Assembly: GCA_965263035.1 (NCBI GenBank)
Contig: OZ253580.1
Location: 832,001 to 896,000 of the forward strand
Source: Acidobacteriota bacterium
Lineage (GTDB): Bacteria; Acidobacteriota; UBA6911; RPQK01; JAJDTT01
DNA length: 64,000 nucleotides
Direction of reading: 5' to 3'
Shown here: piece after piece, positions 29,256 through 64,000 of the stretch
Numbering within the stretch: position 1 is the stretch's first letter
Layout of the letters: each line of letters opens with the position of its first letter
The notes under the pieces: model-generated
Seen by the model: only the letters and a program-made list of their open reading frames with translations
What the model was told of the DNA's origin: nothing
Databases searched by the model: none
Translations under genes and position numbers: made by a program

Positions 29256-29326
29256 AGTGGACCTGCCTTTGCCCCTCATACGTCCATGGGACATCTTGAG
29301 ACGTTTGTGGCTGAGAATACAGCAAT

Positions 29327-34490: not shown

Positions 34491-34841
34491 TGCAATATGA
34501 CTCCTTGGCAGGGGGTGGACCCTCATGTGTAAAACACCTACGGTTCCCACCTCGTGGAGGAAAATTTATTGCCGGAGATGGTGCTCCAGCCGAGAATAGG
34601 AGACCAGTATCGTGCAGAAAGACCGCTCGGGTCAAGCAAAAGTGACCCAATTCCATCCACGACTTCAACCAGGAAGATAGATCAGAGATCAGGTGAAGAT
34701 CGGACGCGGGGGCTGGCTTGGGGGGTGGAGTTCTCGCGATTTCGGACTCCGGGGCCAGAGTCCGATCATAGGCCAACAGCGTTCAGATTGGGGAGGCCGA
34801 CGCGCTCCGTCTGTCACCGAGAGGATCCTCAACGCGTCAGT

Positions 34842-38309: not shown

Positions 38310-38313
38310 GAGG

Positions 38314-39798: not shown

Positions 39799-39872
39799 TA
39801 TGAATTCAATAGTTCAATTTGATGGCCACTCTTCCACAGCAAGACGTTTCGATCGGGGGATATGTCAATTCC

Positions 39873-47078: not shown

Positions 47079-49643
47079 CTACTCGGCTGTCAAACCACTC
47101 TGGAGCTCATCGATCTTCTCGCCGATCAGCGCCGAGTAGTGACGCCAACTGGATTGATCCCCTCCGCTGGCGTCGGTCATCTGAAACTCGAAATTGTCGT
47201 TCATGAAGGTGACGGTTTCTGCAAGCCGATCGCGGGCCCGTTGAAGAGTCTCTTGGGAGACGTCAGAGCTTTTGGTTGCGCAATCCCGGTAGGCAACGTG
47301 CAGAGCCGACACGCTGTCGGCAAACCGATATCCAAGATTGAGGCGGGCGAACAGGTGCTCAAGATCTTCTTTGGCTTCTGGTCTCAAGTCCTTCGATTGC
47401 AAGGCAGTCTGAACCAGCCCCGACGCCTCTCGAGTTACGGCAGCTCGCAGGTTCCAGACCCTCGATAGTTTGTCATGCAGCACCGCGCCGGTAATCTCAG
47501 TGGTCTCCCCCGAGGCCGCCAGGGCCATCCTCACCAATCGCCGGTCGACTTCGACAAGGTCCGGCCTCCAGGTGCGTGAAGCCCGTGCAGAATTATAGGC
47601 AAGTGTGTGCATGGGGTAGATTCGCCGGCTAGCCCAATGGGGCGTGGTTTCATTCACCCTTTTCTTTTCGGTTACAAACTCGCGCTGGACTCGGTAAAGC
47701 CGGTTATACCGATACATGAATGCGCCCGCCCGTTCGCCATAGATCTTCCTGCAAGCCTGGCCCAGAAAACCGTTTTCGCCGAAGATCTCCGCCGGCTCAT
47801 CCAGATTGAAGGTTCCGCGCATATAATTTTCCCGCGACTCACTGTGCGTCGTAGCGGGAATGAATATTCCGTGAGCTCGAGTATTCCAACTGTAAGCTGC
47901 GTTGAGCAATTGCATCGGTTCCTGCGCAAATGAGCCGGAACTGTTTTCGATGGTCGTTGCCCCCTCAAACATCACATTGGTCAATGGCGAAGTCACAAAT
48001 GGGTAGTCATTGTAGGTAAAATCCGCGCCTTGAAAGACGAGAAAGTAAGTACCGATCTCCAGGTCGTGTCTATCGAACCGGGATTGGAGTGCCGGCACCC
48101 ACCTGTCCCGCGTCTCTTCAAGCGGCCAGATTTCCCGAAATCCGATTTGTACCTCAGGTACCTGGTAAGTCAATTGCTTGCCGACGTTTGTCCACAGTGC
48201 CAATAGATTGTTCCAATCTTCGTGCGCCTCCGGGACCGTTTTTATGCTGTACAGCTCCGACTCCCCTGTTCCATAGGTCACGTAACCGGGAGAAATCAGC
48301 CCCACAAAGCAGTCTCTCTTGGCATCATAGCCGGTCTCCTCGTTCCGGACGCTGAAGACCGCGTCCAGCAGCGCGTTGAAGCCGTGAGCCAATGCGCCTG
48401 CCCCTCCGTCAGGCGCCTTCAAGTCGTCATTCGGCCATTTCTTGCGGCAACGATCACAGCGGCGATTCTTCCATTCCGGCGCCGCGTCCCGGTAGTTGTC
48501 CACGTCTTCGTTGTGAATATAGAGACCGCCGGGCTCCAGGGCGCGAACATACGCCGCAAGCTCCTCCGCCTTCAATCCGTTGAGCGGTTCGTTGCTCCGG
48601 CACGTACCAAGACCGCGGGTGAAATCCGCAGGCAGGCGCCCGAAATATTGCTCGTCCTCGTAAGGATGTCCGAGGCAACTATAAATCTCACCATCCGGAT
48701 AGGATTCCCGGTTAAAAAAGATCCTTCCCTGATAGGAGGGCGCCCCTCCTTCGCTGGTTCCACCAAAAAACTGGTACGTACCTAACGCGTACCCGGCGCC
48801 ATAACCCCCGTGGAAAAGGCGAATTCCCCGTTGTCTCGCGTACTTTGCCAGTTCCCTGATCAAGGAGTTGTACCCGGGGGCCCGGTCGAGCGCCCAACCA
48901 AAGCCCTCGAAACGAACCGCGTTTATCTTGTAGAGAAGACAAAAATCGAGTTTTCTTTTCGCTCGTGCGAGGTATTTCTCGCGGCCGTCGCCGTAATCGT
49001 ATGCCCATCGGTTGATCTCATTGTTGAGCAGCCAATCAGAGGCGACCCGGTATTTGAATGAGGGGAAATCCCGAATATGGGCCGTCGTGATCCTGATCTC
49101 CTCTTCCCGCCGATTGATGAGCTGGATCAGCGTCGTGGCAGCATAGAGGAGGCCCTGACCGCCGGCTCCCACCAGAAAAATTCCATTGCCTTGGGTACGG
49201 ATCACGTAATTTTGTTCGAGGTTCCGGGGGTCCTCGAGGACCTGACGGTCCGCCTCGTCCAGCAGCGGGAGATCGGGCCGTTTATCGTAGTTCACCAGAA
49301 AAATCGTGGCCTGCGCCTTTTCCGGCACAGGCCCAGGAAGCTGAGCCACCTCCGCGATGTCAGACACAGCTCCCAACTCTTGGAGCCGGTTGAGGATGAT
49401 TCGTTGGGCAAGAACCTCCTTGAATGTGGGAGCTGTGGAAGGAACGATCACCAGGGCCGCCGCTCGATTCGGCACCAGAATGTCACGTGTCTGAAACGAA
49501 ACAAACTGGGGATCGGGAATAATAAAAGGACCTGCGACGGGCTGTTGGCGGCACGCCGGCTGGGTCGCGAGCACCCCAACGACGACGACGGACAAGGCTG
49601 CCGAGAACACTTTCTTGCCGACGCGCCGCATTCTGAATCTCAT
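47079..49643 (-). CDS. Uncharacterised GH-like protein with GH20 domain-2-like N-terminus (paralog 1, possible lipoprotein)
   Basis: IIPDPQ, GLLYAATTLIQL, IRDFPSFKYR, YIHNED, CDRC; signal ending ..QPAC. Confidence 0.75.
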   Translation of the reverse strand: MRFRMRRVGKKVFSAALSVVVVGVLATQPACRQQPVAGPFIIPDPQFVSFQTRDILVPNRAAALVIVPSTAPTFKEVLAQRIILNRLQELGAVSDIAEVAQLPGPVPEKAQATIFLVNYDKRPDLPLLDEADRQVLEDPRNLEQNYVIRTQGNGIFLVGAGGQGLLYAATTLIQLINRREEEIRITTAHIRDFPSFKYRVASDWLLNNEINRWAYDYGDGREKYLARAKRKLDFCLLYKINAVRFEGFGWALDRAPGYNSLIRELAKYARQRGIRLFHGGYGAGYALGTYQFFGGTSEGGAPSYQGRIFFNRESYPDGEIYSCLGHPYEDEQYFGRLPADFTRGLGTCRSNEPLNGLKAEELAAYVRALEPGGLYIHNEDVDNYRDAAPEWKNRRCDRCRKKWPNDDLKAPDGGAGALAHGFNALLDAVFSVRNEETGYDAKRDCFVGLISPGYVTYGTGESELYSIKTVPEAHEDWNNLLALWTNVGKQLTYQVPEVQIGFREIWPLEETRDRWVPALQSRFDRHDLEIGTYFLVFQGADFTYNDYPFVTSPLTNVMFEGATTIENSSGSFAQEPMQLLNAAYSWNTRAHGIFIPATTHSESRENYMRGTFNLDEPAEIFGENGFLGQACRKIYGERAGAFMYRYNRLYRVQREFVTEKKRVNETTPHWASRRIYPMHTLAYNSARASRTWRPDLVEVDRRLVRMALAASGETTEITGAVLHDKLSRVWNLRAAVTREASGLVQTALQSKDLRPEAKEDLEHLFARLNLGYRFADSVSALHVAYRDCATKSSDVSQETLQRARDRLAETVTFMNDNFEFQMTDASGGDQSSWRHYSALIGEKIDELQSGLTAE

Positions 49644-49645
49644 CG

Positions 49646-52024
49646 TCAGTTGCCGGACGAAATGACTTTCCGAATTCGCTTCAATGCCGCAAGAGAGCTT
49701 CCCACTTCACCTCCGGAGGGATGGAGTGTCTCAGTCCCAAACTGGTTGCGAACGAACACTTCGAGGCGCTCGCTCTGGACCCGTATCAACTCCCTTTGGA
49801 CCTCTTTTGCCTTGCCAGGCGTCATAATGAAATATGAGTGCAGGTTGGAAATAAGGTCTGCAAACCTCACTCCGAGCTGTACAGTCGACAACAGGTGCTC
49901 CAAGTCTGCCCTCGAATCCTCGTAGGGGCCAGTCACTCTGAGAGCGTTTTCCAGGAGCCTTTCTCCCTGCCGCGTGACTCGTTCCCACTTCCTCCAGCGA
50001 GATACGAGGCGCGAATGAAGATCGTCTACCGAAAGTTGGTGTTCCTTCATGAACTGCACTAGACGAACGTGTTCAATCTGTCGGCCCCAAGTCCTTCTAT
50101 CCACTGCAAGATTCCGCCACATGGCCGTGAGTGGATAGAGCCTGGGCCACATTCTCGGCGGCGTCTCATCGGCGGAGGCTTCCTCAAAGAGGGTGTTGAA
50201 ACGCACCATCGAGGGTGCCGCTTTCTCACCGTAGAGGCGGATGCAAGCCCGCTCGAGCAATCCTCCCTGTCCAAAGATCTCCTCCGGCCAAACTCGATTG
50301 TGTTGAAGGTCCAGCCGGATCGTCATCGCCGTCTCGTAGGACTTGGGGTCCCTGTAAAACCCAGTGGACTGAACGTTCCAACTGTATTCGGCGTCGATCC
50401 ACTGGAGCGGTTCCTGATTGAACCCGTTCCCGCCGTCATAGATGGTGCCGGCTCCCAAAAACGCGGCGTTCAAAGCCGGAGAGGAGACAACGGGATAGTC
50501 GTTGTAAAAATAGTTTGCACCACTACAGAAGAACATGAACATTTTGAATGGCCGGTCCGCCCTTTCCATCGCTTGGTTATAGTCGTCGACAAATCTCCTG
50601 GCCGTATCCTGCTGCGGAAAGATCTCGCGGAATCCGATCTGAATGTTTCTTGATGCCGGCAACAAACGCGCAGTCTCTTCCCATAGTTCAACAACATTCT
50701 CCCAATCCGCCGGAGATCGGGAGTCCGTTATGTAGACCGGGGAAATTGGGACGACTATACAGTCGCGCGATGCATCGTAACCGGTGTCGGGATTCTTGAC
50801 GCTGAAGACGGCTTCGATCAGCTCGCGGTATCCATGGGCCAGTCCGCCAGCTCCGCCATCCGGAGCCTTCAGGTCGTCGTTCGGCCAGCGGGCGCGGCAA
50901 CGGTCACATCGCTGCAGCCAGGAGCCCTGCGTGCCCTTGAATCCCCCAAAATCCTCGAAATGAATATAGAGCCCTCCAGGTTCTGTTTTCGCCACATAGT
51001 TTCGTAACTCTTCAGCTTTTAGCCGATTGAGGTCACTATTGGCCCGGCAGCTACCAGTGGTTCGAGGATTCATCCCTCCTTTTCTCGTCCTGGGAAATCC
51101 CATACATTCATAAACCTTCCCTTCGGGATAAGATTCCCGATTCAGGAAAAGCTTACCCAGATAAGGCGCTTCTTCGTAAAGAGGACCGCCCTGGTAGCTC
51201 ATGCCATAGCTTGCGCCGTACCCGCCGGTGACCAAATGGATTCCCCGCTGACGGGCATACTGGTTCAGTTCCTGCATCAGCGCCGGGAATTCGGGGAACA
51301 GATCCGTGCCCCAGCCATATCCGTGAAACAGGACCATGTTGATTTTCTGTCGCAGGCAGAGGTCGAGCTTTCGTTTGATTCGTTTCGAATAGGCCTCGAT
51401 CCCGTCACCCCAGTCATAGCTCCAACGATCGATTTCAACGTTCATCAACCAGTCGGCAGCCAGCCTGTATTCGAAATCGGGATGGTCCCTGATCTGACAA
51501 CCTTCAATTTGGATTTCACCGGCCGCGCCTTTGATCAACTGCGTCAGAGACACGGCTGCGTAGAGCACACCCTGGCCTCCGGAACCAATCAAGTAAATGC
51601 TTCGATTGGCTGGATCGACCCAGAGCACATATTCTTGGCCGGTTGCGCTTGGGGAGCTCAAAAGCTCGCGGTCACTGAAACTCAATACCTCACGCCGGTC
51701 CGAGTCACCTGGGCGTGTCCAGTCGGCATAGGACGCAAGCAGGACCTTCAAATCACCGCCTGATTGTTGTTCCAACAAGCCGTAACGGTGCGGTGTGATC
51801 TCCACTTCCGCGTCCCGTAGGGCCTCGTCGATCAAGCCGACGGCGATTTCCAGCTTTTCGGACGGCGCATCGGGCAAAAGGTAGTCGACCGTAATTTCCC
51901 CACTGAGGGAGATAGCGCCATGCGTCCGCTGAAAATCTTGAGGCGTCGGCAAAACGCCTGAATCTTCTCCGTAAAGGACGATCGTGGGGGTAAACAGGAA
52001 CAGAATGAGAACGACTTGCCTCAT
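49646..52024 (-). CDS. Uncharacterised GH-like protein (paralog 2)
   Basis: VLPTPQ, GVLYAAVSLTQL, IRDHPDFEYR, YIHFED, CDRC; GGAGG RBS and a signal peptide at the ATG at 52024. Confidence 0.75.
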   Translation of the reverse strand: MRQVVLILFLFTPTIVLYGEDSGVLPTPQDFQRTHGAISLSGEITVDYLLPDAPSEKLEIAVGLIDEALRDAEVEITPHRYGLLEQQSGGDLKVLLASYADWTRPGDSDRREVLSFSDRELLSSPSATGQEYVLWVDPANRSIYLIGSGGQGVLYAAVSLTQLIKGAAGEIQIEGCQIRDHPDFEYRLAADWLMNVEIDRWSYDWGDGIEAYSKRIKRKLDLCLRQKINMVLFHGYGWGTDLFPEFPALMQELNQYARQRGIHLVTGGYGASYGMSYQGGPLYEEAPYLGKLFLNRESYPEGKVYECMGFPRTRKGGMNPRTTGSCRANSDLNRLKAEELRNYVAKTEPGGLYIHFEDFGGFKGTQGSWLQRCDRCRARWPNDDLKAPDGGAGGLAHGYRELIEAVFSVKNPDTGYDASRDCIVVPISPVYITDSRSPADWENVVELWEETARLLPASRNIQIGFREIFPQQDTARRFVDDYNQAMERADRPFKMFMFFCSGANYFYNDYPVVSSPALNAAFLGAGTIYDGGNGFNQEPLQWIDAEYSWNVQSTGFYRDPKSYETAMTIRLDLQHNRVWPEEIFGQGGLLERACIRLYGEKAAPSMVRFNTLFEEASADETPPRMWPRLYPLTAMWRNLAVDRRTWGRQIEHVRLVQFMKEHQLSVDDLHSRLVSRWRKWERVTRQGERLLENALRVTGPYEDSRADLEHLLSTVQLGVRFADLISNLHSYFIMTPGKAKEVQRELIRVQSERLEVFVRNQFGTETLHPSGGEVGSSLAALKRIRKVISSGN

Positions 52025-52356
52025 CGCAATGCCTCCATCTGATTCGTTTTTCCGGGGCATTGGCAGAAATCGAGGAACTGCCCCACCAACGAGATTTCCC
52101 ACCAAGATAGACTGGGGCCCAAGGGAAGTCCACTCAGCTATTGGATGTCCTGGATGACGACACCCGGGCGCGGCTGGCAATTGGAGTTGATAAGCGGATG
52201 AATCGGAAAAGAATTCAGGATCCGTTACCGAAGTGGTTCGTGGATGCGAGTGTACCGGAGTCCATTCGGTCAGGTCAGGTATCTGGGATCACGGTGGACT
52301 TCACTCGGTCCCCGGTCTATCTTAGTTGGTAGTTTTGTCATTGAGGGCAGATCACG

Positions 52357-53469
52357 GTGACAATTAAGTCTTGCGTTTGCAAACTCTTGCAACTAGGGAT
52401 CGTCTTCCCCGCCATACTCGTCGGGAACTTATCCGCTACGGACGTACGCGTAGATGCCCTGGCCAACGAGGTGCAGGACAAAGGGTGGATCATTTACAGC
52501 GCCCGCACGGAGAGCGGCGATTGGGACCTTTACATGAGCCGTCCGGACGGCAGTCAGCGACTCAATCTGACAAATTCACCTGATCGGCACGAAATGGGAG
52601 CACGGTTCTCCCCAGATGGGAAAAAACTGCTCTACCGCCGGCTGGCCGTGGGCTCGACCTTTCACCATCTCAACTGGGGCCTTCAAGGTTCTCTCGTCAT
52701 GGCTCATTCCGATGGGAGCAACGCGGTTGAGTTGGGCGGCCGAGGTGACTACCCGTGGGCCTCGTGGAGTCCGGACGGAAAGAAGATCGCCTGCTTGTAC
52801 AAGGATGGGATCAGGATCCATGACGTCGAGACCGGATCTGTGATGAGCAAGATGCCGCGCCAGGGCATCTACCAACAACTGTTCTGGTCCCCAGACGGCA
52901 CCATGGTGTGCGGCCCGGCAAATCGACGAGGAGATGCCTGGGGCGTAGTGCAAATTGAGATCAATTCGGGGACGCTACACTCGATCAGTGGTCCAAGTTG
53001 TTGCACCGGTGACTGGTTTCCTGATTCTGGGCGTCTAATCTATTCTCACCGTCCTCCCAATCAAGAAGTTATGGACGGGGGTGGAATGGCTCACCGATCC
53101 GGTCAAAAGCTCGAACATGGGTGGACCCAACTCTGGATGGCTGACAAGACCGGGCAAAACCGAAGATTGGTCTACGGAGAGGATGGGCGTCATGTCTACG
53201 GTGGCTTGGTTTCGCCCGACGGGAACTACGTTCTCTTTACGCGATCCCCTGAAGAAGACCTCAAGGTGATGAGGTCACAAACAGATCAGACAGGCGTGCG
53301 TCGACAAGGCGCCGCTATGGCGCTGATGCGTTTGAGTGACGCTCCGACCATCGGTGGCGAAAGCAGAGCCTTGCGAAAACTGTACCCAGCCACCAAGGAT
53401 GGACCTGTCTTGCATCTGCCCGAATCCTGGGAGCCCCATTGGACCTATTCTGAAGTTAGACGGAAGTGA
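52357..53469 (+). CDS. TolB-like (PD40/WD40-like) beta-propeller protein
   Basis: FSPDGKKL, WSPDGKKI, WSPDG, WFPDSG, VSPDG repeats; signal peptide. Confidence 0.82.
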   Translation: MTIKSCVCKLLQLGIVFPAILVGNLSATDVRVDALANEVQDKGWIIYSARTESGDWDLYMSRPDGSQRLNLTNSPDRHEMGARFSPDGKKLLYRRLAVGSTFHHLNWGLQGSLVMAHSDGSNAVELGGRGDYPWASWSPDGKKIACLYKDGIRIHDVETGSVMSKMPRQGIYQQLFWSPDGTMVCGPANRRGDAWGVVQIEINSGTLHSISGPSCCTGDWFPDSGRLIYSHRPPNQEVMDGGGMAHRSGQKLEHGWTQLWMADKTGQNRRLVYGEDGRHVYGGLVSPDGNYVLFTRSPEEDLKVMRSQTDQTGVRRQGAAMALMRLSDAPTIGGESRALRKLYPATKDGPVLHLPESWEPHWTYSEVRRK

Positions 53470-53951
53470 GACCGTTAATAGCGCTTCCCTCCGGTGGACT
53501 TTCCTTCAGGTCCGGTCTCCTCCTGATGGCGCTGTCATTGGCTGCGTGCACCGGACCTCAACGATGTTCCGGAATCGATGCTGAAATCACCACCGCGGGA
53601 AGTGTGGAGATTACCGCCGAACTCTTGGAAATTCCCGGCAAGTTCCCGTCCAACGATCTCTACGACTATGCCTACATCCTGAAATACCAAATCCGAGCAG
53701 TCCATCGCGGGCAGGTCAGTTCCAAGAACATTCTGGTCGCCCACTACAATCCGCTGAAACCGCGTTCCGAGGCTGAGAATGAGTTCTCGGGTAAAGTGGG
53801 AGGCACCGTACGACGATTCAAGGAGGGAGACCTGCATCGCCTCGCATTGGAGGAGCCACTCGATGACCACTATATGGGGGGTGTGATCGACAAGTTCCAG
53901 GAAGTCGGTACTCGCTACTGGTCGGTCTGGGCCAACCTCGTGATCGAATAG
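53466..53951 (+). CDS. Hypothetical lipoprotein
   Basis: LSLAAC lipobox; GTGA overlap with the upstream gene; stop abuts the MBOAT start. Confidence 0.75.
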   Translation: MRPLIALPSGGLSFRSGLLLMALSLAACTGPQRCSGIDAEITTAGSVEITAELLEIPGKFPSNDLYDYAYILKYQIRAVHRGQVSSKNILVAHYNPLKPRSEAENEFSGKVGGTVRRFKEGDLHRLALEEPLDDHYMGGVIDKFQEVGTRYWSVWANLVIE

Positions 53952-55355
53952 TTGGTTTTCACTTCTCATATCTTTGTTTTCTATTTCTTGCCTCTCGTCC
54001 TATTCAGCTACTGGCTGATACCGCCCCGGTTCCGCAACCTCTTTCTGATCTTCGTCAGTTATCTGTTCTACGGATGGTGGAAGCCGTGGTTCGTGGTGTT
54101 GATGCTCGCATCGACCATCGTGGACTTTCTGTGCGGCAAGACCATCTCGAACCCGGCCATCTCGGAACGGGGAAAAACCGCGGCGCTGGTGTGTTCGATC
54201 ACCGCCAACCTGGGGCTACTGGGGTTTTTCAAGTACTACATGTTCGCCGGCGAGAATTTGAACTACCTGCTGAATCTGGTTGGATCCGAGACCTTTTCAA
54301 TCCTCCATATCACGCTTCCGATCGGCATTTCTTTCTACACCTTCCAATCCATGAGCTACACGATCGACGTCTACCGAGGTCGTGCGCCAGCAGTCCGGTC
54401 GTTTACCGATCTCGCGTGCTTCGTTAGTCTCTTCCCACAACTAATTGCCGGGCCGATCGTACGCTACCGCACGATTGCCGCCCAACTGGTGCGGCGGACT
54501 CACAACTCGGAGAGGCTCGCTTCCGGGGCCTCCCTTTTCATTCTCGGGTTCTCCAAAAAGATACTGTTGGCAAATCCGATCGGCGCCATTGCCGATGCTG
54601 TGTTCCTGGCCGAATCTGCGGGAGCTTTGGAAGCCTGGTTCGGCGTCACAGCCTACGCTTTCCAGATCTACTTCGACTTCTCAGGCTACTCAGACATGGC
54701 TCTCGGCCTGGGACGCATCTTGGGCTTTGACTTCCCCAAGAATTTTGCCTCTCCCTATCGCGCCGAAAGCATTACCGAGTTCTGGAGACGGTGGCATATC
54801 TCGCTCTCTACGTTCCTGCGAGATTACCTGTACATCCCACTGGGTGGAAATCGGAAGGGTCCCTCCCGCACCTATGTCAATCTAATGATCGTCATGCTGG
54901 TCGGGGGGCTTTGGCATGGGGCCGGCTGGACCTTTCTGGTGTGGGGAGCCTACCACGGAGCCCTGCTGGGTCTGGAGAGATTAAACGGCAAGGGCAGTTT
55001 CTATGCTTTCCTGCCTGTTCCCGCCAGAAAGGGCGCTACTTTTGTTCTCGTTCTTATCTCGTGGGTCCTCTTTCGCGCCTCAAACCTTGGCCAGGCGGGA
55101 GATTATCTCGGCTTCATGTTCGGTTTCCATTCCCAACAGGTTTCAACGGCGCTACTTTCGGCCCAGATCTTCACTCCGGCCAATGTTCTCATCTTAGCCG
55201 TCGCAGGCGTGTTCGCCTTCGGCCCCGCCGAGGCCGAACCGTGGACCCGCCGTCTTTCCTGGCCAAAAATCATGGCCATACTTTCCCTTTTTCTGGGTTC
55301 CCTGATGGTGATGTCCGCCCAGACCTTCAATCCTTTCCTCTATTTTCAATTTTGA
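53952..55355 (+). CDS. MBOAT O-acyltransferase (AlgI/PatA/DltB family)
   Basis: LPIGISFYTFQ, FPQLIAGPI, QIYFDFSGYSDMA, FWRRWHISLS..RDYLYIPLGGNR, GLWHGA, PFLYFQF. Confidence 0.95.
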   Translation: MVFTSHIFVFYFLPLVLFSYWLIPPRFRNLFLIFVSYLFYGWWKPWFVVLMLASTIVDFLCGKTISNPAISERGKTAALVCSITANLGLLGFFKYYMFAGENLNYLLNLVGSETFSILHITLPIGISFYTFQSMSYTIDVYRGRAPAVRSFTDLACFVSLFPQLIAGPIVRYRTIAAQLVRRTHNSERLASGASLFILGFSKKILLANPIGAIADAVFLAESAGALEAWFGVTAYAFQIYFDFSGYSDMALGLGRILGFDFPKNFASPYRAESITEFWRRWHISLSTFLRDYLYIPLGGNRKGPSRTYVNLMIVMLVGGLWHGAGWTFLVWGAYHGALLGLERLNGKGSFYAFLPVPARKGATFVLVLISWVLFRASNLGQAGDYLGFMFGFHSQQVSTALLSAQIFTPANVLILAVAGVFAFGPAEAEPWTRRLSWPKIMAILSLFLGSLMVMSAQTFNPFLYFQF

Positions 55356-55362
55356 GACGTCC

Positions 55363-56523
55363 ATGGTGAAACTGAAATATCGATTTCTGGTGACGACATT
55401 TTTCGCCGTGATCGGCTTTGTTCCCGTATCTCAGGTCGTGTTCGAGTTGACACAGGGTGATCGACCTGTCGTCGCGGAATTGGTGTTGAACCTGCCTACC
55501 GAGCAGCACCTCAGAGAGGTCGAGAGCGAAATCGAGGAAACCTCCTGGTTTATCCGAAACTCCCGCTCCTTGGTGCAGCGCATCTGGTTCCGACTGTCGG
55601 GGCAACCCGGCGAAAATATCTTGGTCGGGCTCGATGGCTGGCTGTTCTATCTTCCCACAGTCCGTTTCCTGGTCGAACCCTTCCCACCCGGCAAGGATCG
55701 GCAATCCCACTTCCATGATCCCTTGGCCGCCATCACCGACTTTCATCGGCAGTTGGCCGGCCGCGGAATCCAACTGTTGGTGGTACCGGTCCCCGGCAAA
55801 GCCAGCATCTATCCCGAACGGGTCAGCTCCCGTGCCGATCCCGAGAAAATCGCGGATTCCTCGCATACGCTGGAGTTCATCTCCCAATTGAACAACGCGG
55901 GGATACCAACGATCGATCTCTTTGAGATATTCCACCAGGAGCGTCGGCGGGACCGTTCAACCAACGTAGAGCACTTCTATCTCTCGCAAGACACGCATTG
56001 GACGCCGGAGGGTGCCGGATTGGCCGCTCAAGCCGTTGCGCAGGGAGTCTTGAGAGAGGGTTGGGTGACCGCAGGTTCGAAAGAATACGCTCAAAAGCCG
56101 TTTACAGTGGCACGCCGCAGCGACATTCTCAGAATGGCGCGTTCACCATCGATCGAAAGGCTCTTTCCTCCCCAGGAAGTCACCTGCCAGCAGGTGTTCG
56201 AATCGGACACCGGAAACCTCTACCAGGACGATCTCGATTCCCCGGTGCTCGTCCTCGGGGACAGCTTCTTGAGGATCTACCAGACTGACAATCCCAAAGC
56301 GGCGGGCTTTCTGGCGCATCTCGCCAAGAACCTGAGACGTCCGGTCGCTTCGATCGTCAACGACGGAGGCGCGTCCACGTTGGTCCGACAGCAGTTGAGC
56401 AGGAACCCCGACCTGCTGGAGGGCAAGAAACTAGTCGTTTGGGAATTTGTGGAGAGGGACTTGCGCTTCGGAATGGAGGGCTGGCAGAAGATTCCAATTC
56501 CTTCCACTTCGAGTCGCCGATGA
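55363..56523 (+). CDS. AlgJ/AlgX-like SGNH O-acetyltransferase
   Basis: N-terminal TM, GLDGWLFY, PGKASIYPE, DTHWT, VLGDSF, VVWEFVER. Confidence 0.9.
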   Translation: MVKLKYRFLVTTFFAVIGFVPVSQVVFELTQGDRPVVAELVLNLPTEQHLREVESEIEETSWFIRNSRSLVQRIWFRLSGQPGENILVGLDGWLFYLPTVRFLVEPFPPGKDRQSHFHDPLAAITDFHRQLAGRGIQLLVVPVPGKASIYPERVSSRADPEKIADSSHTLEFISQLNNAGIPTIDLFEIFHQERRRDRSTNVEHFYLSQDTHWTPEGAGLAAQAVAQGVLREGWVTAGSKEYAQKPFTVARRSDILRMARSPSIERLFPPQEVTCQQVFESDTGNLYQDDLDSPVLVLGDSFLRIYQTDNPKAAGFLAHLAKNLRRPVASIVNDGGASTLVRQQLSRNPDLLEGKKLVVWEFVERDLRFGMEGWQKIPIPSTSSRR

Positions 56524-56590
56524 ACGCCTGAGAAAACCTGGCCGGCGGTATCTCGTCTGATTCAAGTCAATGCACCCCAATTCGCCCCAT

Positions 56591-59080
56591 TCAGGGACTC
56601 ATCTCGCCCAGCTTATCCCGCATCACATCGATGTAGAACTGCCAGGATGACTGGTCTCCGCCACTTGGGTCTGTCATTTCGAAAGTAAAGTTCTCGTCCT
56701 TGAAGCTCTCCACATCAGCAACGAGGCGTTTCGACTCTTCCAGAGACTTGGTGACGGAATCGATGTCGGCTTCATGTTGGAATTGGTAGACACGAAAAAG
56801 CGCGGCTACAGCGGCCGAGAACCGGTACCCGAGTTCAAGGCGCTTGGAAAGGTGAATCAAGTCTTCTTTATTACCGGCCGTCAACTCGGCCACCTGAAGT
56901 GCGTTCGCGACATCCGCCGTCGCTTCTCGGGTCACTTCCGCACGCAGTCTCCAGATTCGCTCCAGTTTGCGATGGAGATCCTGAGTTGAGATGTCCGGAT
57001 CGCCACCAACGTTCCGCGCGAAATCAGCCAGAGTTTTCCCGATCTGGGTATCGGCCAGATTCTTCTCCCAGGTTCGTTGTGCATTGGCCAGGTTGTAGAA
57101 CATGGTGTTCATGGGGTAGATCTTGGACAGAGTCCAGCGGCCGTGGCCCTCCTGGTAATAGCCGGGAGAAGCGAATTCCCGCTGCTCTCGAGAGCGCCGG
57201 AAGTACTGATACATGTATCGACCCGCTTCGTCGCCATAGAGCTTGCGGCAGGCTTCACCCAGGAAACCTGATTCCGAAAAGATCTCTTCCGGCTCAACCA
57301 GATTCATCTGGTACTCCCGGAGACGACGCTCGGTTTCGACCTGTATGGTCGGCCGCAGGAAGAATTCCCGGGCCTTGAGATTCCACGCATACTCGGCATT
57401 CAGAAGTTGCTGCGGTTCCTGTGCGAAGGTGCCTGAAAAATTGTACAGCGTGGTGGCCCCTGCAAAACTGGCATTGCCAACCGGGGCTGCCATAAAGGTG
57501 GAATCGGAATTGTAGTAGTTGGCTCCCTCCACTACGAAAACATAACTGCCAAAATTCAAGTCCTGCTCACGCAGTTTCTCGTGCAGACGAAGAGGCCAAG
57601 TGTCCTCCGGCCCTTGGAACGGAAACATCTCACGAAACCCGCCTTGAACCCTGGGCCCCTGATGCCTGAGCTGCTTGAAGATGTTCACCCAGAGTTCCTG
57701 TACGTTGTTCCAATCCTGCCGCGCCGCTTCAATGGAGTCGTGATGGCGGGGTGTCTTCCCCACGCCGAAGGCCATATAGGAGGGTGAGATCAGGACTACG
57801 ATGCAGTCTCTGGAGGCATCATAGCCCGATTCCTCATTCTTGACCGAATAGATGGCGTCCAACAGCGTGTTGTACCCATGGGCAAGAGCTCCCGCCCCTC
57901 CGTCCACCTCCTTCAGATCGTCGTTGGGCCAGCGTTTCCGGCAGCCTTCATCGCGAACCTCCCATTCGACCTGAGTGTCCGGATAGTTGCTGAGATCCTC
58001 GTGGTGGATGTAAAGGGCACCGGGCTCAACGGCCCTCACAAAAGCAGCAAGTTCCTCCTGTTTGAGCCGGTTCAACTCTTCATTGCTGCGACAGGTTCCC
58101 AGGGTTCGCGGCGGGAAACGCTCGTTCTCATGGGCCATGCCGATACATGAGTAGATCTCCCCGTCCGGATAGGAACGGCGATTGTAAAAAAGTTTCCCAC
58201 GGTAGGCAGGGGTGTTGAAGAAGCCCTGATAGGTTCCCAACCCGTAACCAGCCCCATATCCCCCGAAGAACAAGTGGATACCGCGCTCTCTGGCATACCG
58301 ATTGATGGACCGCATCAGAGCAGCGTACTCCGGTTCCAGAGTCCACCCGAAACCGTCAAAGGTCACTGCGTTGATCTTGTATTTCAGGCAGAAGTCGAGT
58401 TTTCTCTGGATCCGCCGGAGGAAGTTGGCCTGACCGTCTCCATAGTCATATCCCCAGCGATTGCCTTCCACGTTCTGCAACCAGTCCGCCGCCTCGCGGT
58501 ATTTGATATCCGGAAAGTCGCGGATGTGAACTCTTGCCAATTCCAAGCGGCCGGAACGGGATTCCAACAACTGAATCAGGGTAGCCGCCGCATAGAGGGC
58601 TCCTTGATCGGTGCTGCCCACCAGAAACGCGTCTCGTTCTGCGATTCGAATGACGTAACTCTGTTCCGTTTCTGCAGCATCGCGGAGAACGCTGATGTCT
58701 TCGCTGTCCAGATTCACCGCGTCCGACAGGGCAACTTGGTCGTCTCGCCAAACTTGGAAACGAATGGTCAAAGCGGCATCTTCAGCCGTGTTCGCGGATT
58801 GCCCAGCAGATGCCAGGCCGTCCGTACCTGACAATTCAGCAAGCCGTTCCCGTACGAGTTGAGCAGCCAACTGCAGTTTGGGGGATGGGTTATCAGGTAG
58901 CACGAAGGCGACGCTGCCTGGGCGTTCAGGGATCAGAACGGGATCGCCGGCCACAACCATCGATTGTGGGTCCGGGATCACATAGGGCAGCCGAGCCGAA
59001 ACGTCGTCGGAAGACCGACAGCTCTGGGCCAGCATCAGCCCCATTCCCACGGCCACTGCGAGAAATATTCTCTGGGACAT
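56591..59080 (-). CDS. Uncharacterised GH-like protein (paralog 3, lipoprotein)
   Basis: LAQSC lipobox; VIPDPQ, IRDFPDIKYR, YIHHED, DEGC. Confidence 0.75.
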   Translation of the reverse strand: MSQRIFLAVAVGMGLMLAQSCRSSDDVSARLPYVIPDPQSMVVAGDPVLIPERPGSVAFVLPDNPSPKLQLAAQLVRERLAELSGTDGLASAGQSANTAEDAALTIRFQVWRDDQVALSDAVNLDSEDISVLRDAAETEQSYVIRIAERDAFLVGSTDQGALYAAATLIQLLESRSGRLELARVHIRDFPDIKYREAADWLQNVEGNRWGYDYGDGQANFLRRIQRKLDFCLKYKINAVTFDGFGWTLEPEYAALMRSINRYARERGIHLFFGGYGAGYGLGTYQGFFNTPAYRGKLFYNRRSYPDGEIYSCIGMAHENERFPPRTLGTCRSNEELNRLKQEELAAFVRAVEPGALYIHHEDLSNYPDTQVEWEVRDEGCRKRWPNDDLKEVDGGAGALAHGYNTLLDAIYSVKNEESGYDASRDCIVVLISPSYMAFGVGKTPRHHDSIEAARQDWNNVQELWVNIFKQLRHQGPRVQGGFREMFPFQGPEDTWPLRLHEKLREQDLNFGSYVFVVEGANYYNSDSTFMAAPVGNASFAGATTLYNFSGTFAQEPQQLLNAEYAWNLKAREFFLRPTIQVETERRLREYQMNLVEPEEIFSESGFLGEACRKLYGDEAGRYMYQYFRRSREQREFASPGYYQEGHGRWTLSKIYPMNTMFYNLANAQRTWEKNLADTQIGKTLADFARNVGGDPDISTQDLHRKLERIWRLRAEVTREATADVANALQVAELTAGNKEDLIHLSKRLELGYRFSAAVAALFRVYQFQHEADIDSVTKSLEESKRLVADVESFKDENFTFEMTDPSGGDQSSWQFYIDVMRDKLGEMSP

Positions 59081-59142
59081 CGCCTGATCTCCTCCTATAG
59101 GAGCAGACCGCCACAGCGGTCACCGAGGATCTGCTCAGGTGT

Positions 59143-61644
59143 CTAATCCTGGTCCATTGTGTCCGTCGAAAGCTCCTGCAGGCGCGCCTTGATTTGGTGC
59201 AGGCCCTCCAGCCAGGTCGCCTGGTCTCCGCCCAGTGGATCGACGGTGTCAAACGTAAAGTCCCGATCCAGGAGCGATTCCAACGTATCCAGTTCGTTCT
59301 TGGTCCGCGCGACCAGGGGTGCCACTACGTCCCGACCCTTTTTGTCCAGCGAAGCCGCCAGCGCCTCATGGTAGCGATTCAAAACCCTGGCGAATCCCCG
59401 TCCCACTCGCAGACACTTGCGCAGGTACTCGACATCGGGGCGGGCATCGGCGCGGAGATCGGAGGTCCGGAGCACTTCGGACGTAAGCGCGACCGCCTCG
59501 GCGTTGACTTCGTCGTAAGCCTGCCAGAGTTCTGCCCACCGTCTCTGCCAATCCACGGAGTCGATACCCAAAAGCGTCGTCAGTTCCTTGGCGCGCGCCG
59601 ACAATTTCGGGCCTCCGGATTCCTGGTCCATGCTCAGAATTCGCCAGAGGATCGAGAGTGGGTATAGTCTCTCAGCCGCCACCGGGACCAGAAGATCGAT
59701 TTCACTTCCGTAGACCTCATCCACCGTCCGGTCGTAGTGGGTGGCCATGATCGTGCGACCGATCCCTTCCGGCACTTCAACCCGGCGCTGAGTCCGGTAG
59801 AAGTTGAAAATTCGGTGCATTTTCCCGCCCGCATCGTCCCCGTAGAGCTGTCGGAAGGCCTCGGAGAGAAACCCGGCGGGACCGGTGATCTCCGGTCCCA
59901 GATCCCGATTGTTCATCAACGCCTTCCAAGTCGAACGGGTCTCCTCATTGCGGATCGGAATGACATGGCCGGGGGCATCGACGTTCCAACTGTACTCCGC
60001 ATTGAAGAGCTGAAGCGGCTCCTGGAAGACGGCCCCACTGAAGTTGTAGATCGCCTCAGCCCCCTTGAAGATCCCATTCATGGCAGCAGTCCCCGCAAAG
60101 GGATAGTTGAAGGAATCTCTTGAATAAAGATCAGCTCCGCCCAGAAAGAAGAGGAACGTGCGGGTGTTCAGGCCTTGGCTTCCCAACCTTTGGCGATAGG
60201 CATCGATCCACCGCACATCGGTTCCCTGCTGAGGGAAGACCTCCCGGAAGCCGATCTCAATGTTCTCGTCATGGGGAAGCAGCGACATCACGTTCGACCA
60301 GTAGATCAGGTGGTTTTCCCAGTCGGTGGGCAGGGTCGGAAACGGGTTGTATCCGGGACTGAGGAACATGACGGTACAGTCGCGGGCGGCATCATAACCC
60401 GAGTCGGCATTCTTGACGCTTCGTATGGCCCGCAGGAGTTCGTTGTAACCATGAGCCACGGCTCCGGCCCCGCCGTCTTTGGTGATGAGGCTGTCGTTGG
60501 GCCATTGCTTGCGGCAACGAAAACATCTCTTTTTCCAGGTTACCCAGAGTTCGTAGTTGGTCAGGTGATAGTCGAGGTTGGGATCACCGATTCCGCGGTC
60601 TTCATGGTGGATGTAAAGCGCTCCCGGCTCTATGGAGCGGACAAAGTCGGCCATCTCGGCGGCTTTGAGCCGATTCAGCGCCTGGTTCCCGCGACAGGTT
60701 CCCAAGATGCCACGCCCCGGACGGTTTTCTCCGAAGCAGGAGTAGATCGTTCCGTCCGGATATTGATCGCGGTTGTACCAGACCTTGCCGACATTGCGTT
60801 CGGGTCGGACGATACGGCCATAGTTGGCGCCGTACCCGGCAAACAGGAGCTTGATACCTCGCGCTCTGGCGTAGCCGTTCAACTCCCTCATCATTCTCGA
60901 GTAGCCGGGAAACTTCTCACGGTTCCACCCGTAGCCGTCGAAGAAAACCAGGTTGATCTTGTAGCGAAGACAGAAGTCGATTTTCCTCTTGAGGCGCTGG
61001 ACATAGGCCTCCTTGCCGTCACCCCAGTCATAGGCCCAGCGGTTGATTTCCGCCAACAGCAACCAATCGGCCGCGGCCCGATAGCGAAAATCGGGAAAAT
61101 CACGAATAGAGCCGTTCGGGACCAGAACCGCACTACCGGTCCGCCTCATGACCTGCCGGAGAGAAGCGGCAGCATAGAGAACGCCCTGGGCGCTTCCACC
61201 GACGAGCCAGACCTGTGGCTGGTTTCCCGGAACCACTTTGAGCACATACCCTTGTTCGGCCCTGGCAGGATCGGAAAGCAGCTCTCGATCGGCCGGCTCA
61301 AGGAAGGAATCGGCTTGCTTTCTCAAAATGCCGTTACGACTCCAGTCCACCAGGTGAATCCCACCCAGGACGGGCTGAGGTGCGGCGCCCGTCAGGAAAG
61401 TGGGCGGGGGAAAAACTGAAGGATCTTGGGAGCGGATCAGGTCAGCCGCCAGACGTTCTTTTGCCGAAGCTCCCTCTGCTAGAACCAGTCGAGTCGAGTC
61501 CGATCCTTTCTCAAACCGAACCGTCTGCTGGTCCCAAACCTGATGCTGGGGTGTGGGAATGATCCGGGGCGTTCCTTCCAAGGCTTGCCCGCTGATGACC
61601 AAGAGGATTGCAATGAGCAGTCCGGACGTACTCAATCGATACAT
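59143..61644 (-). CDS. Uncharacterised GH-like protein (paralog 4)
   Basis: Signal peptide; IIPTPQ, IRDFPDFRYR, YIHHED, CFRC. Confidence 0.75.
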   Translation of the reverse strand: MYRLSTSGLLIAILLVISGQALEGTPRIIPTPQHQVWDQQTVRFEKGSDSTRLVLAEGASAKERLAADLIRSQDPSVFPPPTFLTGAAPQPVLGGIHLVDWSRNGILRKQADSFLEPADRELLSDPARAEQGYVLKVVPGNQPQVWLVGGSAQGVLYAAASLRQVMRRTGSAVLVPNGSIRDFPDFRYRAAADWLLLAEINRWAYDWGDGKEAYVQRLKRKIDFCLRYKINLVFFDGYGWNREKFPGYSRMMRELNGYARARGIKLLFAGYGANYGRIVRPERNVGKVWYNRDQYPDGTIYSCFGENRPGRGILGTCRGNQALNRLKAAEMADFVRSIEPGALYIHHEDRGIGDPNLDYHLTNYELWVTWKKRCFRCRKQWPNDSLITKDGGAGAVAHGYNELLRAIRSVKNADSGYDAARDCTVMFLSPGYNPFPTLPTDWENHLIYWSNVMSLLPHDENIEIGFREVFPQQGTDVRWIDAYRQRLGSQGLNTRTFLFFLGGADLYSRDSFNYPFAGTAAMNGIFKGAEAIYNFSGAVFQEPLQLFNAEYSWNVDAPGHVIPIRNEETRSTWKALMNNRDLGPEITGPAGFLSEAFRQLYGDDAGGKMHRIFNFYRTQRRVEVPEGIGRTIMATHYDRTVDEVYGSEIDLLVPVAAERLYPLSILWRILSMDQESGGPKLSARAKELTTLLGIDSVDWQRRWAELWQAYDEVNAEAVALTSEVLRTSDLRADARPDVEYLRKCLRVGRGFARVLNRYHEALAASLDKKGRDVVAPLVARTKNELDTLESLLDRDFTFDTVDPLGGDQATWLEGLHQIKARLQELSTDTMDQD

Positions 61645-61666
61645 GGCTGCACCGTGTTCCTTTCCT

Positions 61667-64000
61667 CTAACGAAATTCGACGCCTCGACGGGGCATCGAT
61701 TGAGCCCACGCCAACAGGTTACTTCTTAGTTCCTCGAGGGTCAGCGCCCAACTCGACAGGTCGCCGCCTTTCGGATCCACCGTGTCAAACGAAAAGGAGT
61801 CTTCGAGGTAAGTCCAAACCCGCTCGATCCCGGTGAGGATCTCCACGATCTCCCCTTGTCCATCCGGCCCTGTCACCCGATTGCCGATCGCGTCATGGTA
61901 GGACGCCAGGAGACCTCCAAACCGGATCCCCACTTCCAGGCAGCGCTCCAGGTGGCGCAGATCCGGCACGGCTTCCTCCCTCACGTCGCCGACGCCGAGG
62001 GCTTCGGTCACCATTCGCTTTCCCTTTCGGTTGACCTCGGCAAGTTGCCTCCAAAAGGCTGCTATCCCTCGTTGCAAGAGAGCGTACTCCTGGGCTGAAA
62101 AGGTGCGCACACGCCCCCTGATTCGGATCTCCGTGGCGGCATCCTCCGTGTCTTCCAGCGCGCGGCTGCCCGCCGAACCCGATCCCCAATAGGCGCTGTC
62201 GGCTTGAAAGAGCCTCCAGAAGACAGCGTTCGGATAGACCTTCCTGGGGTAAAAGGCGGGAATCTCATTGTCCCCAAGCGGTTCGAAGAAGTTGAAGAAA
62301 CGCGCCATGAGCTTGCCCGTCTTCGCCCCGTAGATTCGAACGCACGCCTCTTCGAACAGTCCCCCGGAACCGTACACCTCCTCGGGAAGTTCCTGGTTCG
62401 ACCGGAGCCGGTTCCATGCAGCCAGAGCCGTCTCGAAGGTATTCGGCCGTTGGTAGCCAGGGGCGTCGACATTCCAACTGAATTCGGCGTTGACGACCTG
62501 CAACGGTTCCTGGTGGACTCCTCCACTGAAATTGTAGATCGCTTCGGCGCCTTCAAAAATTCCGTTTATGACCGGGGTCGCCGCATACGGATAGTTGAAG
62601 ACGCCACCGGAATATTGGTCAGCGCCCCCCAAAAAGAACATGAAGGTTTTATCGCTCAACCCTCGGGAGGCCATTCTCTCCTTGAACGCTGGAATCCACG
62701 GTTCACCCGTTCCCTGACGAGGAAAAATCTCTCGAAAGCCGATCTCGACATTATCTTGCGACGGCAGAAGCGATACCGCGTTGGCCCAGAATTCGAGGGT
62801 CTTTTCCCAGTTGAGATCTTCATCGGTGTCGACGCCACCCAGGCCGGACCGCCCGGAATCTATCCCATAGGGCGGCGAGATCAGAATAATGGTGCAATCG
62901 CGCGCTGCATCGTAGCCGGTATCCGGGTTGCGCACTCGTTGGATACTCTCGACGATCTGACCGTATCGATAGGCAAGGGCTCCGGCACCACCGTCCAGAG
63001 CGGCGAAATCGTCGTTGGGCCATCGGCCCTTGCACCCCGGGTCGCGTGCCTTCCAACGTTCCACGTTGCTCTTGTAGTGTCCCGTGTCCTCGTGATGGAT
63101 GTACAAAGCCCCGGGTTCTACCGTGCGAACCAACTCGGTGATCGCTCCGACGATCTCCCTGTTTTGCGCCTCGTTCGAGCGACAGGTGCCCAAAGTGGGG
63201 TGGAGGGGTGTTCGAAGTTCGCCGTAACACGCGTATAGAGGCCCGTCAGGGTAACTTTTCCGGTTCAGAAATATTTTCCCGATGTTGTGCTCGGGCTCGA
63301 CTTTCAGGGGGTCGAAGTTGGCGCCAAATCCAGCATAGACAAGCTTGATCCCACGGTCACGGGCATAGGAGTTCAGTTCCCGCATCATCGCACCGTAGCC
63401 GGGTACTTTTTCGGCAGTCCAACCAAAGCCGTCAAAGAAAACCATATTGATCTTGAAGCGCAGACAGAAATCGAGCTTGCGCTTGATCCGCTCCATGTAG
63501 GCTCTCCTGCCATCTCCCCAGTCGTAACCCCAGCGGTTGAGCTCGGCACGCATGAGCCAGTCCGCTGCGGCCCGGTACTTGAAGTCCGGGTAATCCCTCA
63601 CTTCCACTTCAGGGATGACGAGCTCCCCGTCCTCCACTGACCACAGTTGCACCAGAGTGGTCACCGCGTAGAGCGCACCCAGCGGAGCGGACCCGAGCAG
63701 AAGTATCCGTTGGTGTTTAGGATCCGTCTTGATCACATAAGCCTGGCCGGTATCTTGGGGATCATTCAGCACCTTACGATCGGCGTCGGAAAGGAGTCTC
63801 AGTAACTCATAGGACCGGTTTTCCTTTTGGCTCCAGTCCAATAGCAGTATGCACGGCGTTCCGGAACACTCCGTCGCCATCTGTAGCTGAACTCCACTGA
63901 CGCTGGCCTCCTGGCGAAGAAACTGCTCTGCAAGCTCAAGCATTCGGCTACGCGACGGGCGGGCCACTACCCAACCGCCGGAGGCTCCTGCACCGCTCTT
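61667..64000 (-). CDS. Uncharacterised GH-like protein (paralog 5; 5' end lies beyond the window)
   Basis: Frame open to 64000; VRDYPDFKYR, YIHHED, DPGC. Confidence 0.75.
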   Translation of the reverse strand, partial: KSGAGASGGWVVARPSRSRMLELAEQFLRQEASVSGVQLQMATECSGTPCILLLDWSQKENRSYELLRLLSDADRKVLNDPQDTGQAYVIKTDPKHQRILLLGSAPLGALYAVTTLVQLWSVEDGELVIPEVEVRDYPDFKYRAAADWLMRAELNRWGYDWGDGRRAYMERIKRKLDFCLRFKINMVFFDGFGWTAEKVPGYGAMMRELNSYARDRGIKLVYAGFGANFDPLKVEPEHNIGKIFLNRKSYPDGPLYACYGELRTPLHPTLGTCRSNEAQNREIVGAITELVRTVEPGALYIHHEDTGHYKSNVERWKARDPGCKGRWPNDDFAALDGGAGALAYRYGQIVESIQRVRNPDTGYDAARDCTIILISPPYGIDSGRSGLGGVDTDEDLNWEKTLEFWANAVSLLPSQDNVEIGFREIFPRQGTGEPWIPAFKERMASRGLSDKTFMFFLGGADQYSGGVFNYPYAATPVINGIFEGAEAIYNFSGGVHQEPLQVVNAEFSWNVDAPGYQRPNTFETALAAWNRLRSNQELPEEVYGSGGLFEEACVRIYGAKTGKLMARFFNFFEPLGDNEIPAFYPRKVYPNAVFWRLFQADSAYWGSGSAGSRALEDTEDAATEIRIRGRVRTFSAQEYALLQRGIAAFWRQLAEVNRKGKRMVTEALGVGDVREEAVPDLRHLERCLEVGIRFGGLLASYHDAIGNRVTGPDGQGEIVEILTGIERVWTYLEDSFSFDTVDPKGGDLSSWALTLEELRSNLLAWAQSMPRRGVEFR

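Follow-up and report, generated by a model that had tools for sequence, protein, structure and literature searches.

An array of five glycosidase-like paralogs, remotely homologous to GH20 and DUF4838 proteins, in a low-GC stretch of an Acidobacteriota genome

Glycoside hydrolases (GH) of families GH20 and GH84 are retaining enzymes that rely on substrate-assisted cleavage, with their acids in the order D-E in the former and D-D in the latter. Families GH115, GH67, GH138 and GH89 share a build of N-domain, barrel and helical domain and act on other sugars; for GH115, GH89 and GH138 these are uronic acids or alpha-linked N-acetylglucosamine (GlcNAc), handled by other catalytic arrangements. One report (PMC10570127) gives H-x-G-G-D-E as the GH20 motif after barrel strand 4 and describes DUF4838 as a domain of GH163 and GH185, both of which cleave N-acetylhexosamine (HexNAc) substrates: BT1035 of GH163 is an endo-GlcNAc-ase on complex N-glycans, and Sp_0475 of GH185 is a 6-sulfo-GlcNAc-ase, GH185 being reported to use a substrate-assisted mechanism with D309 of Sp_0475 as its single identified carboxylate. 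Here we describe an array of five minus-strand genes that lies between position 47,079 and the end of a 64,000-nucleotide (nt) window, by which we mean the whole stretch of DNA analysed (positions 832,001 to 896,000 of contig OZ253580.1, assembly GCA_965263035.1, from an Acidobacteriota bacterium). Their products resemble the enzymes above in part, and carry the motif LYIHxED directly after strand 4 of a predicted barrel.

The reading towards which we lean is that the array codes for secreted enzymes belonging to an uncharacterised GH family, a deep offshoot of the GH20/GH84/DUF4838 group, with a HexNAc-type substrate-assisted mechanism and with different linkages of one amino-sugar glycan as their targets. 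This is a probable new family, to which no Pfam or NCBIfam model corresponds, inside a known superfamily, and its catalytic activity is a prediction.

The five paralogs and their place among known families

The five proteins, of about 790-850 residues, can be aligned over their whole length: identity to paralog 1 is 36-48%, mean column identity is 52% and about 150 columns are invariant (MAFFT). All of the conserved blocks listed in a preliminary description of this DNA lie within these invariant columns, namely IRDxPxFxYR, AxDWL, RWxYDxGDG, KRKxDxCLxxKIN, GxGA and NRxxYPxG, followed by G(T/S)CRxN, EPGxLYIHxED, WPND, DGGAG, GYDAxRDC, GFRE, QEPxQ and GG(D/E). Such sharing is far beyond chance, and the open reading frames (ORFs) and the alignment together confirm the picture of five paralogs with blocks in a common order. 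The same description had spoken of five or more copies and proposed to look for others in the next window; a profile of the five paralogs gave exactly five matches in the whole 6.2-Mb single-contig genome, none of them further on, and only the 5' end of paralog 5 itself continues there.

Paralog 1 (P0001; 47079..49643, minus strand) encodes 854 residues, comprising a GH20b N-domain, a barrel with the motif LYIHNED and a C-terminal helical bundle. Paralog 2 (P0002; 49646..52180, minus) carries LYIHFED and has 844 residues from its listed TTG start; this start is probably too far upstream, because an ATG at 52060 or 52024 (804 or 792 residues) would put a signal-like stretch at the N-terminus. 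The motif is LYIHHED in the remaining three. Paralog 3 (P0003; 56591..59080, minus; 829 residues) is the copy used for modelling and provides the residue numbering below; its bases 57989-58015 encode LYIHHEDLS, with E361-D362 at 57995-58000. Paralog 4 (P0004; 59143..61644, minus; 833 residues) has a 10-residue insert directly past the ED motif. Paralog 5 (P0005; 61667..64000, minus) reaches the window end with its 5' end outside; the open frame runs on in the adjoining stretch (L005), and its start likely lies about 120 nt beyond base 64000, ahead of a signal-like N-terminus. Judged by eye, the signals are of mixed type: a hydrophobic stretch followed by a Cys occurs in paralogs 1 and 3, where the putative lipoboxes (TQPAC and AQSC) are non-canonical, and no such Cys is present in paralogs 2, 4 and 5, the signal of paralog 4 being of the cleavable type.

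Pfam recognised the GH20b N-domain (PF02838, Glyco_hydro_20b) above its cut-off in four of the five paralogs; the fifth, whose N-terminus is cut by the window end, scored 25.9 against a cut-off of 26.1 bits. No other Pfam domain exceeded its cut-off in the five proteins, and none of them matched PF00728 (GH20), PF07555 (GH84) or PF16126 (DUF4838) at E<=1; PF07555 found no match anywhere in the organism's own genome. NCBIfam returned sub-threshold N-domain matches and nothing above cut-off. The preliminary view of these proteins as unassigned therefore stands as far as Pfam and NCBIfam are concerned, as does that of an N-domain of the GH20/GH84 kind ahead of the barrel, given the PF02838 matches and the modelled order of N-domain, barrel and helical bundle. 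A profile search of the sequences in the PDB aligned with the N-domain only (query residues ~116-193), the best match being the GH84 enzyme NagJ at E 6.5e-7; judged by that search, the family has no solved member.

The family is large. A word-indexed search retrieved 243 proteins at E<=1e-3, and the few with a source name are labelled 'glycoside hydrolase family 20 zincin-like fold domain-containing protein' or 'hypothetical'. Among 1.84 billion clusters at 50% identity, 891 representatives matched at E<=1e-3, 173 of them at E<=1e-30. When 24 distant representatives were scanned with Pfam (E<=0.001), 21 had GH20b and none had a named barrel domain, PF00728 included, and a query of the ESM Atlas with one homologue (P0096) yielded only 'hypothetical protein' clusters carrying GH20b. 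In the literature searched, the family is nowhere described and its Cys cluster is not mentioned. Several natural fusions were also seen: a GFO/IDH/MocA oxidoreductase is joined to the family domain in P0215, and P0221, P0231 and P0207 include fusions to TPR plus a ThuA-like domain and to a Peptidase_C26/GATase domain, as well as a 1454-residue form. These fusions are possible clues to substrate chemistry.

Comparison alignments were built from same-phylum genomes, with 11 DUF4838 sequences and 22 GH20 sequences (from 22 of 24 loci, L065 and L072 being left out as short or stop-containing). Aligned by hhalign with the GH20 set, the 63-sequence family alignment (A2) gave a probability of 98.9% (E 2.1e-17) over 300 columns, covering residues 23-389 through strands 1-4 and pairing PxFxYR of strand 1, KxN of strand 2, RGI of strand 3, and H359 with the His of HxGGDE. 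H360-E361-D362 are left opposite a gap just before the GGDE of GH20, which places them in the same loop with no residue-for-residue match. Against the DUF4838 set the probability was 96.0% (E 4.6e-9), and against the single DUF4838 protein of the window 85%. By these profile comparisons, remote homology of the family to GH20 and to DUF4838 (GH163/GH185) is detectable. The preliminary description had taken IHxED for an acid pair analogous to, but distinct from, those of known enzymes; its E-D order is indeed distinct, but the relation to GH20 is one of remote homology, not mere analogy.

We modelled paralog 3 with AlphaFold2 from alignment A2 (pLDDT 88.9, pTM 0.91). In the model an N-domain is followed by an eight-stranded (beta/alpha)8 barrel, and a helical bundle forms the C-terminal part. 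Strand 4 of the barrel spans residues 355-359; directly after it come E361-D362, as had been anticipated for the E-D pair, and the loop in which they lie corresponds by profile-profile alignment to the HxGGDE loop of GH20. Foldseek ranked GH84 first (E 2.5e-17), followed by GH138 (E 1e-16) and GH20, so that the folds expected at the outset, GH84 and GH20, are among the nearest. VIA-align gave Z 18.7 for GH84 over residues 31-824, and Z 18.1 with an rmsd of 3.5 over 279 residues for the core of human OGA. In a search of 48,161 representative chains made independently of Foldseek, GH84 again came first (Z 18.3), the best GH20 chain reaching 15.8, GH115 15.0 (540 residues aligned), PgaB glycosidase domain 14.6, dispersin B 14.4 and GH89 14.0 (534 aligned).

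Each known family thus shares some features with the array proteins and lacks others. Like GH20, they have the GH20b N-domain, homology over that domain and strands 1-4, acids in the loop after strand 4 and, in a subset of GH20, four Cys; unlike GH20, they escape PF00728, read HxED (this clade) or Hx(hydrophobic)D (most members) instead of HxGGDE, and end in a helical bundle of ~200 residues, the second half of the barrel not being alignable by sequence. GH84, as represented by NagJ, BtGH84 and human OGA, is the sole structural match to cover N-domain, barrel and helical bundle, its chains aligning over model residues 28-829 at Z 17-18.7, and it too has an adjacent carboxylate pair after strand 4 in addition to the N-domain sequence match. 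GH84 nevertheless differs in sequence (8-14% identity, no PF07555 match), in domain arrangement (whole-chain rmsd 8-9) and in its acids, D-D (FDD in the one GH84 sequence compared) against E-D. With GH163/GH185 the family has in common a CxxC-containing four-Cys signature and a C(L/R)(T/S)N motif, and DUF4838 genes are often its genomic neighbours; the differences are the missing PF16126 match, the extra E361 of this clade and another C-terminal domain. GH115, GH89 and GH138 have a similar build of N-domain and barrel, with Z 14-15 over more than 530 aligned residues for the first two, but no sequence signal to any of the three was found.

In a tree of 35 full-length members (a quick search with midpoint root only and one long-branch join flagged), every paralog clusters, at SH-aLRT 99-100, with orthologues from other members of the Acidobacteriota or from Planctomycetota or Latescibacterota. 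Paralog 1 is sister to paralog 3, and both have orthologues of their own; the groups of paralogs 4 and 5 contain copies that come from Bryobacteraceae/Solibacteraceae arrays; and paralog 2 falls in the other major clade, beside planctomycete members. The tree thus bears out the suspicion that the duplications are old, and presents the five copies as separately conserved subfamilies. The length differences among them fall, by alignment and model, in the loops after strands 3 and 4, which fits differing specificities. The proposal of an undescribed GH family expanded into a multi-specificity toolkit is accordingly upheld in part: no curated model describes the barrel, an acid follows strand 4 and the paralogs are old, but the family is a remote homologue of GH20 and DUF4838 and not unrelated to them.

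Conserved residues and the predicted active site

E361 and D362 are kept in all 63 sequences of alignment A2. Conservation across the wider family was counted in 96 representatives of at least 550 residues from an unbiased search: Y435, W373 and R376 are kept in all 96, D362, H359, R483 and E484 in 95 each, R195 in 91, but E361 in 31. The E-D pair that had been called invariant is therefore so within this clade, and D362 is, by these counts, the family-wide acid, with the adjacent Glu as a mark of the clade. All members in the related loci described below show ED as well, yet this is no evidence of conservation, because the pattern LYIH[HF]ED itself served in part to find those loci. A single family-wide carboxylate near strand 4 recalls D309 of Sp_0475 (PMC10570127), an equivalence that would join a residue kept in 95 of 96 representatives, through a loop gapped in hhalign, to a protein outside our comparison.

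Four Cys positions, C312, C330, C377 and C380, are kept in 90-94 of the 96 representatives. Paralogs 3 and 5 have Asp at 377, the set in paralog 3 being C312, C330, D377 and C380. The model places all four on the loops after strands 3 and 4; we infer from this loop topology that they lie close to one another and that D362 lies near the pocket. The aligned positions are invariant in the 11 DUF4838 sequences, and each is present in 8-10 of the 22 GH20 sequences. We read these residues as an inherited feature that would hold a structural metal or form two disulfides. An ordinary GH20 subgroup (L050-L058) has the four Cys at the aligned positions, as LSC, VYC and CPxC, and the other sampled GH20s are mostly without them, a pattern suggestive of a metal or disulfide unit that came or went as one piece in the history of GH20.

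In the mechanism that we propose, the C-terminal face of the barrel would bind the sugar, D362, which comes three residues after the end of strand 4, would be the general acid/base, and E361 would, in this clade, orient the 2-acetamido group of the substrate. The pocket would be lined by R195, K235 and N237, Y435, and R483 and E484. The predicted result is retaining, substrate-assisted cleavage of an N-acetyl-amino-sugar glycoside, with an acid order reversed with respect to the D-E of GH20 and the D-D of GH84. Characterisation of one member would found the family and could give new HexNAc-type glycosidases for glycan analysis; it would also show how the acids of GH20, GH84, GH163 and GH185 were rearranged, as D-E, D-D, E-D or a lone D.

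Neighbouring genes in related loci and the candidate substrate

We compared 27 related loci from Acidobacteriota, Latescibacterota, Planctomycetota, Chthoniobacteraceae and Lentisphaeria/Victivallales, many of them on short contigs. The number of family genes per locus ranges from 1 to 5; single-copy loci are common, and at least two copies occur in 9 of the 27. This variation bears on the notion, raised as an alternative in the preliminary description, that the five proteins make up one hetero-oligomeric enzyme. In its favour are the adjacency of the genes and the likeness of the C-terminal helical bundle to the stalk of GH84, which mediates dimerisation in human OGA. We regard such an assembly as very improbable, both from the copy numbers and from the full conserved pocket set retained in all five copies, which fits independent enzymes better.

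A Php-like gene of the phosphotriesterase (PTE) family is found in 7 of the 27 loci, a DgaE-like lyase gene in 4, a gene for an EF_0837-type deacetylase in 2 and a DUF4838 gene in 4 (L023, L026, L031 and L040). The first two also occur in the organism's own genome, just past the window end, where the Php-like gene overlaps that of a DgaE/SelA-related pyridoxal phosphate lyase (L049 417-2623; genome 896,417-898,623), and the window has its own DUF4838 (GH163/GH185-type) gene (39819-41624, plus strand; Pfam, 203 bits). Also recurrent are TonB-type receptors, CE4 and PIG-L deacetylases, GntR regulators and EamA carriers. In L024, L030 and L041 the Php-like and DgaE-like genes adjoin family members as a pair, sometimes with an EF_0837-type amidohydrolase.

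The recurrent Php-like, DgaE-like and deacetylase neighbours point to amino-sugar substrates. The Php-like/DgaE-like pair looks like an orphan catabolic module with an amino-aldonate, or the lactone of one, as its possible substrate, and we infer from these gene contents a product of the glycosidases that is an (N-acetyl)amino sugar, later oxidised, ring-opened, deacetylated and deaminated. A GFO-type dehydrogenase would oxidise the released sugar and a Php-like lactonase would open the ring; deacetylation would follow, and a DgaE-like lyase would deaminate the product. Most probably the targets of the five copies would be different linkages within a single complex amino-sugar glycan.

A bolder proposal would combine a new family at the level of CAZy, spanning ~900 clusters at 50% identity in Acidobacteriota, Planctomycetota, Verrucomicrobiota, Lentisphaerota and Latescibacterota, with an undescribed amino-sugar route made up of the glycosidase, the GFO-type dehydrogenase, the Php-like lactonase, the EF_0837-type deacetylase and the DgaE-like ammonia-lyase. 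We put it forward tentatively, as a possibility with the odds against it. If true, the route would suggest a physiological role for the orphan Php/SelA-related module of enteric bacteria, and each of the five paralogs would have its own linkage specificity on a single complex glycan from the environment. In soils and sediments, Acidobacteriota and Planctomycetota rank among the major degraders of complex carbon, yet they are poorly understood in this role; an unnamed family found in arrays of up to five old paralogs, near transporters and an orphan catabolic module, marks a substrate and a pathway missed by current CAZyme annotation.

Several observations weigh against the substrate-assisted, amino-sugar reading. 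E361 is lost in about two thirds of the wider family, mostly in favour of I, L, V, M or A, so that a mechanism based on an adjacent pair is not general and may not apply here either. The putative equivalence of D362 and the acid of GH84 and GH20 derives from strand topology and a loop-gapped hhalign alignment. No hhalign signal was obtained against a single GH84 sequence (probability 0.5%), and generic GH5 barrels also reach Z ~15 in the search of 48,161 chains. As to the pathway, PTE and DgaE-like genes occur in a minority of the loci, many of which are short contigs, and in the organism's own genome both are below their NCBIfam cut-offs (226 against 486 bits and 250 against 600, respectively). 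The local PTE- and DgaE-type profiles were moreover built from earlier matches in these same loci, and their only new finds were a PTE in L042 and a DgaE-like fragment in L028.

The loss of E361, together with the presence of D362 and E484 in 95 of 96 representatives each, would also suit classical two-carboxylate glycosidases that use D362 and E484 as their catalytic pair on sugars other than HexNAc, such as uronic acids or alpha-linked residues, in the manner of GH115, GH67, GH138 and GH89. The invariant or nearly invariant R195, K235, R376 and R483 could then bind an anionic substrate; GH138 is among the top Foldseek matches, GH115 and GH89 cover the whole model, a glucuronyl-esterase-like gene adjoins a family member in L047, and rhamnose-related genes are present in L022, L025 and L027. 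We nevertheless hold this alternative to be unlikely. Links at the sequence level lead only to GH20 and DUF4838, both HexNAc-cleaving (PMC10570127), and the recurrent neighbours are deacetylases and an amino-aldonate-lyase-like enzyme. In addition, E484 follows strand 6 and not strand 7, the usual place of the nucleophile, the position after strand 7 being a variable D or N.

The low-GC island and the remaining genes

The genome has a mean GC content of 62.1% (sd 2.4), and the locus belongs to its longest low-GC run, in which ten 5-kb windows in succession stay below 59%; the second-longest run has six. The run of ten extends over genome positions 850,001-900,000 (18,001-68,000 in the coordinates of the window). 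In a survey of 151 sampled genomes of the phylum, the family was present only in this genome and in one of two relatives of the same genus, again in five copies. The low-GC run and the absence of the family from 149 of the 151 genomes make it plausible, on compositional and distributional grounds, that the whole island was acquired horizontally.

A TonB-dependent-receptor-like outer-membrane barrel (Pfam CarboxypepD_reg plus OMP_b-brl_4) is encoded within the island at 31257..34550 on the minus strand, and the same type of barrel stands beside family arrays in L029, L031, L033 and L034. The co-location of a TonB-type transporter with several glycan-active genes in a low-GC stretch of ~50 kb is an arrangement of the polysaccharide-utilisation type, and the glycan would be taken up through this neighbouring receptor. 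A GFO/IDH/MocA oxidoreductase gene (Pfam) lies at 41709-42680 on the minus strand.

Four unrelated plus-strand genes lie between paralogs 2 and 3, at 52357..56523, and break up the array: a PD40 propeller gene (52357-53469; Pfam), a small ORF of 161 residues (53466-53951), an MBOAT gene for a DltB/AlgI-like acyltransferase (53952-55355; Pfam) and a gene for an AlgX-like SGNH protein (55363-56523; Pfam). This insert has the look of a polysaccharide O-acylation module within a degradative array, on the opposite strand. ORFs of similar sizes, matched by size alone, stand at the same place between family members in the relatives L037 and L039.

Acyltransferase genes inside the array would be explained if the paralogs acted as PgaB or dispersin-type enzymes do and trimmed or remodelled an O-acetylated exopolysaccharide made by the cell itself, not foraged glycans; the PgaB domain and dispersin B are, as noted, among the structural matches, and the size-matched ORFs of L037 and L039 lend this option some further colour. 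We consider it improbable all the same: the insert is read in the other direction, the loci scanned with Pfam (L037 and L039 being outside that scan) showed no MBOAT or AlgX-like gene next to family members, and the recurrent neighbours are those of uptake and catabolism, with TonB-type receptors, lactonase-like and lyase-like enzymes, deacetylases and GntR regulators. The foraging of an environmental amino-sugar glycan is the role that we continue to prefer for the five enzymes.

Downstream of paralog 1, by 20 nt, is a co-directional gene for a TPR protein (45574-47058, minus strand), followed in the same direction by one for an FG-GAP/ASPIC-UnbV protein (43874-45577, minus). Both probably share an operon with paralog 1; scans for promoters and terminators gave counts at or below the shuffle expectation and were uninformative on operons. 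In L024 and L028, too, family members stand next to a TPR/FG-GAP pair or an FG-GAP protein. Pairs of an FG-GAP/ASPIC-UnbV (CRTAC1-like) propeller gene and a TPR gene are repeated in the window, at 36585-39798 and 43874-47058, a third FG-GAP gene lies at 29327-31096, and another TPR gene is found past the window end.

Two other ORFs of the island, at 24440-25936 (plus strand; 498 residues) and 27405-29402 (minus strand; 665 residues), belong to no Pfam family, the former showing a weak NCBIfam hint of a TreZ-like glycosidase (E 3.6e-5). The island also holds a xylose-isomerase-like barrel.

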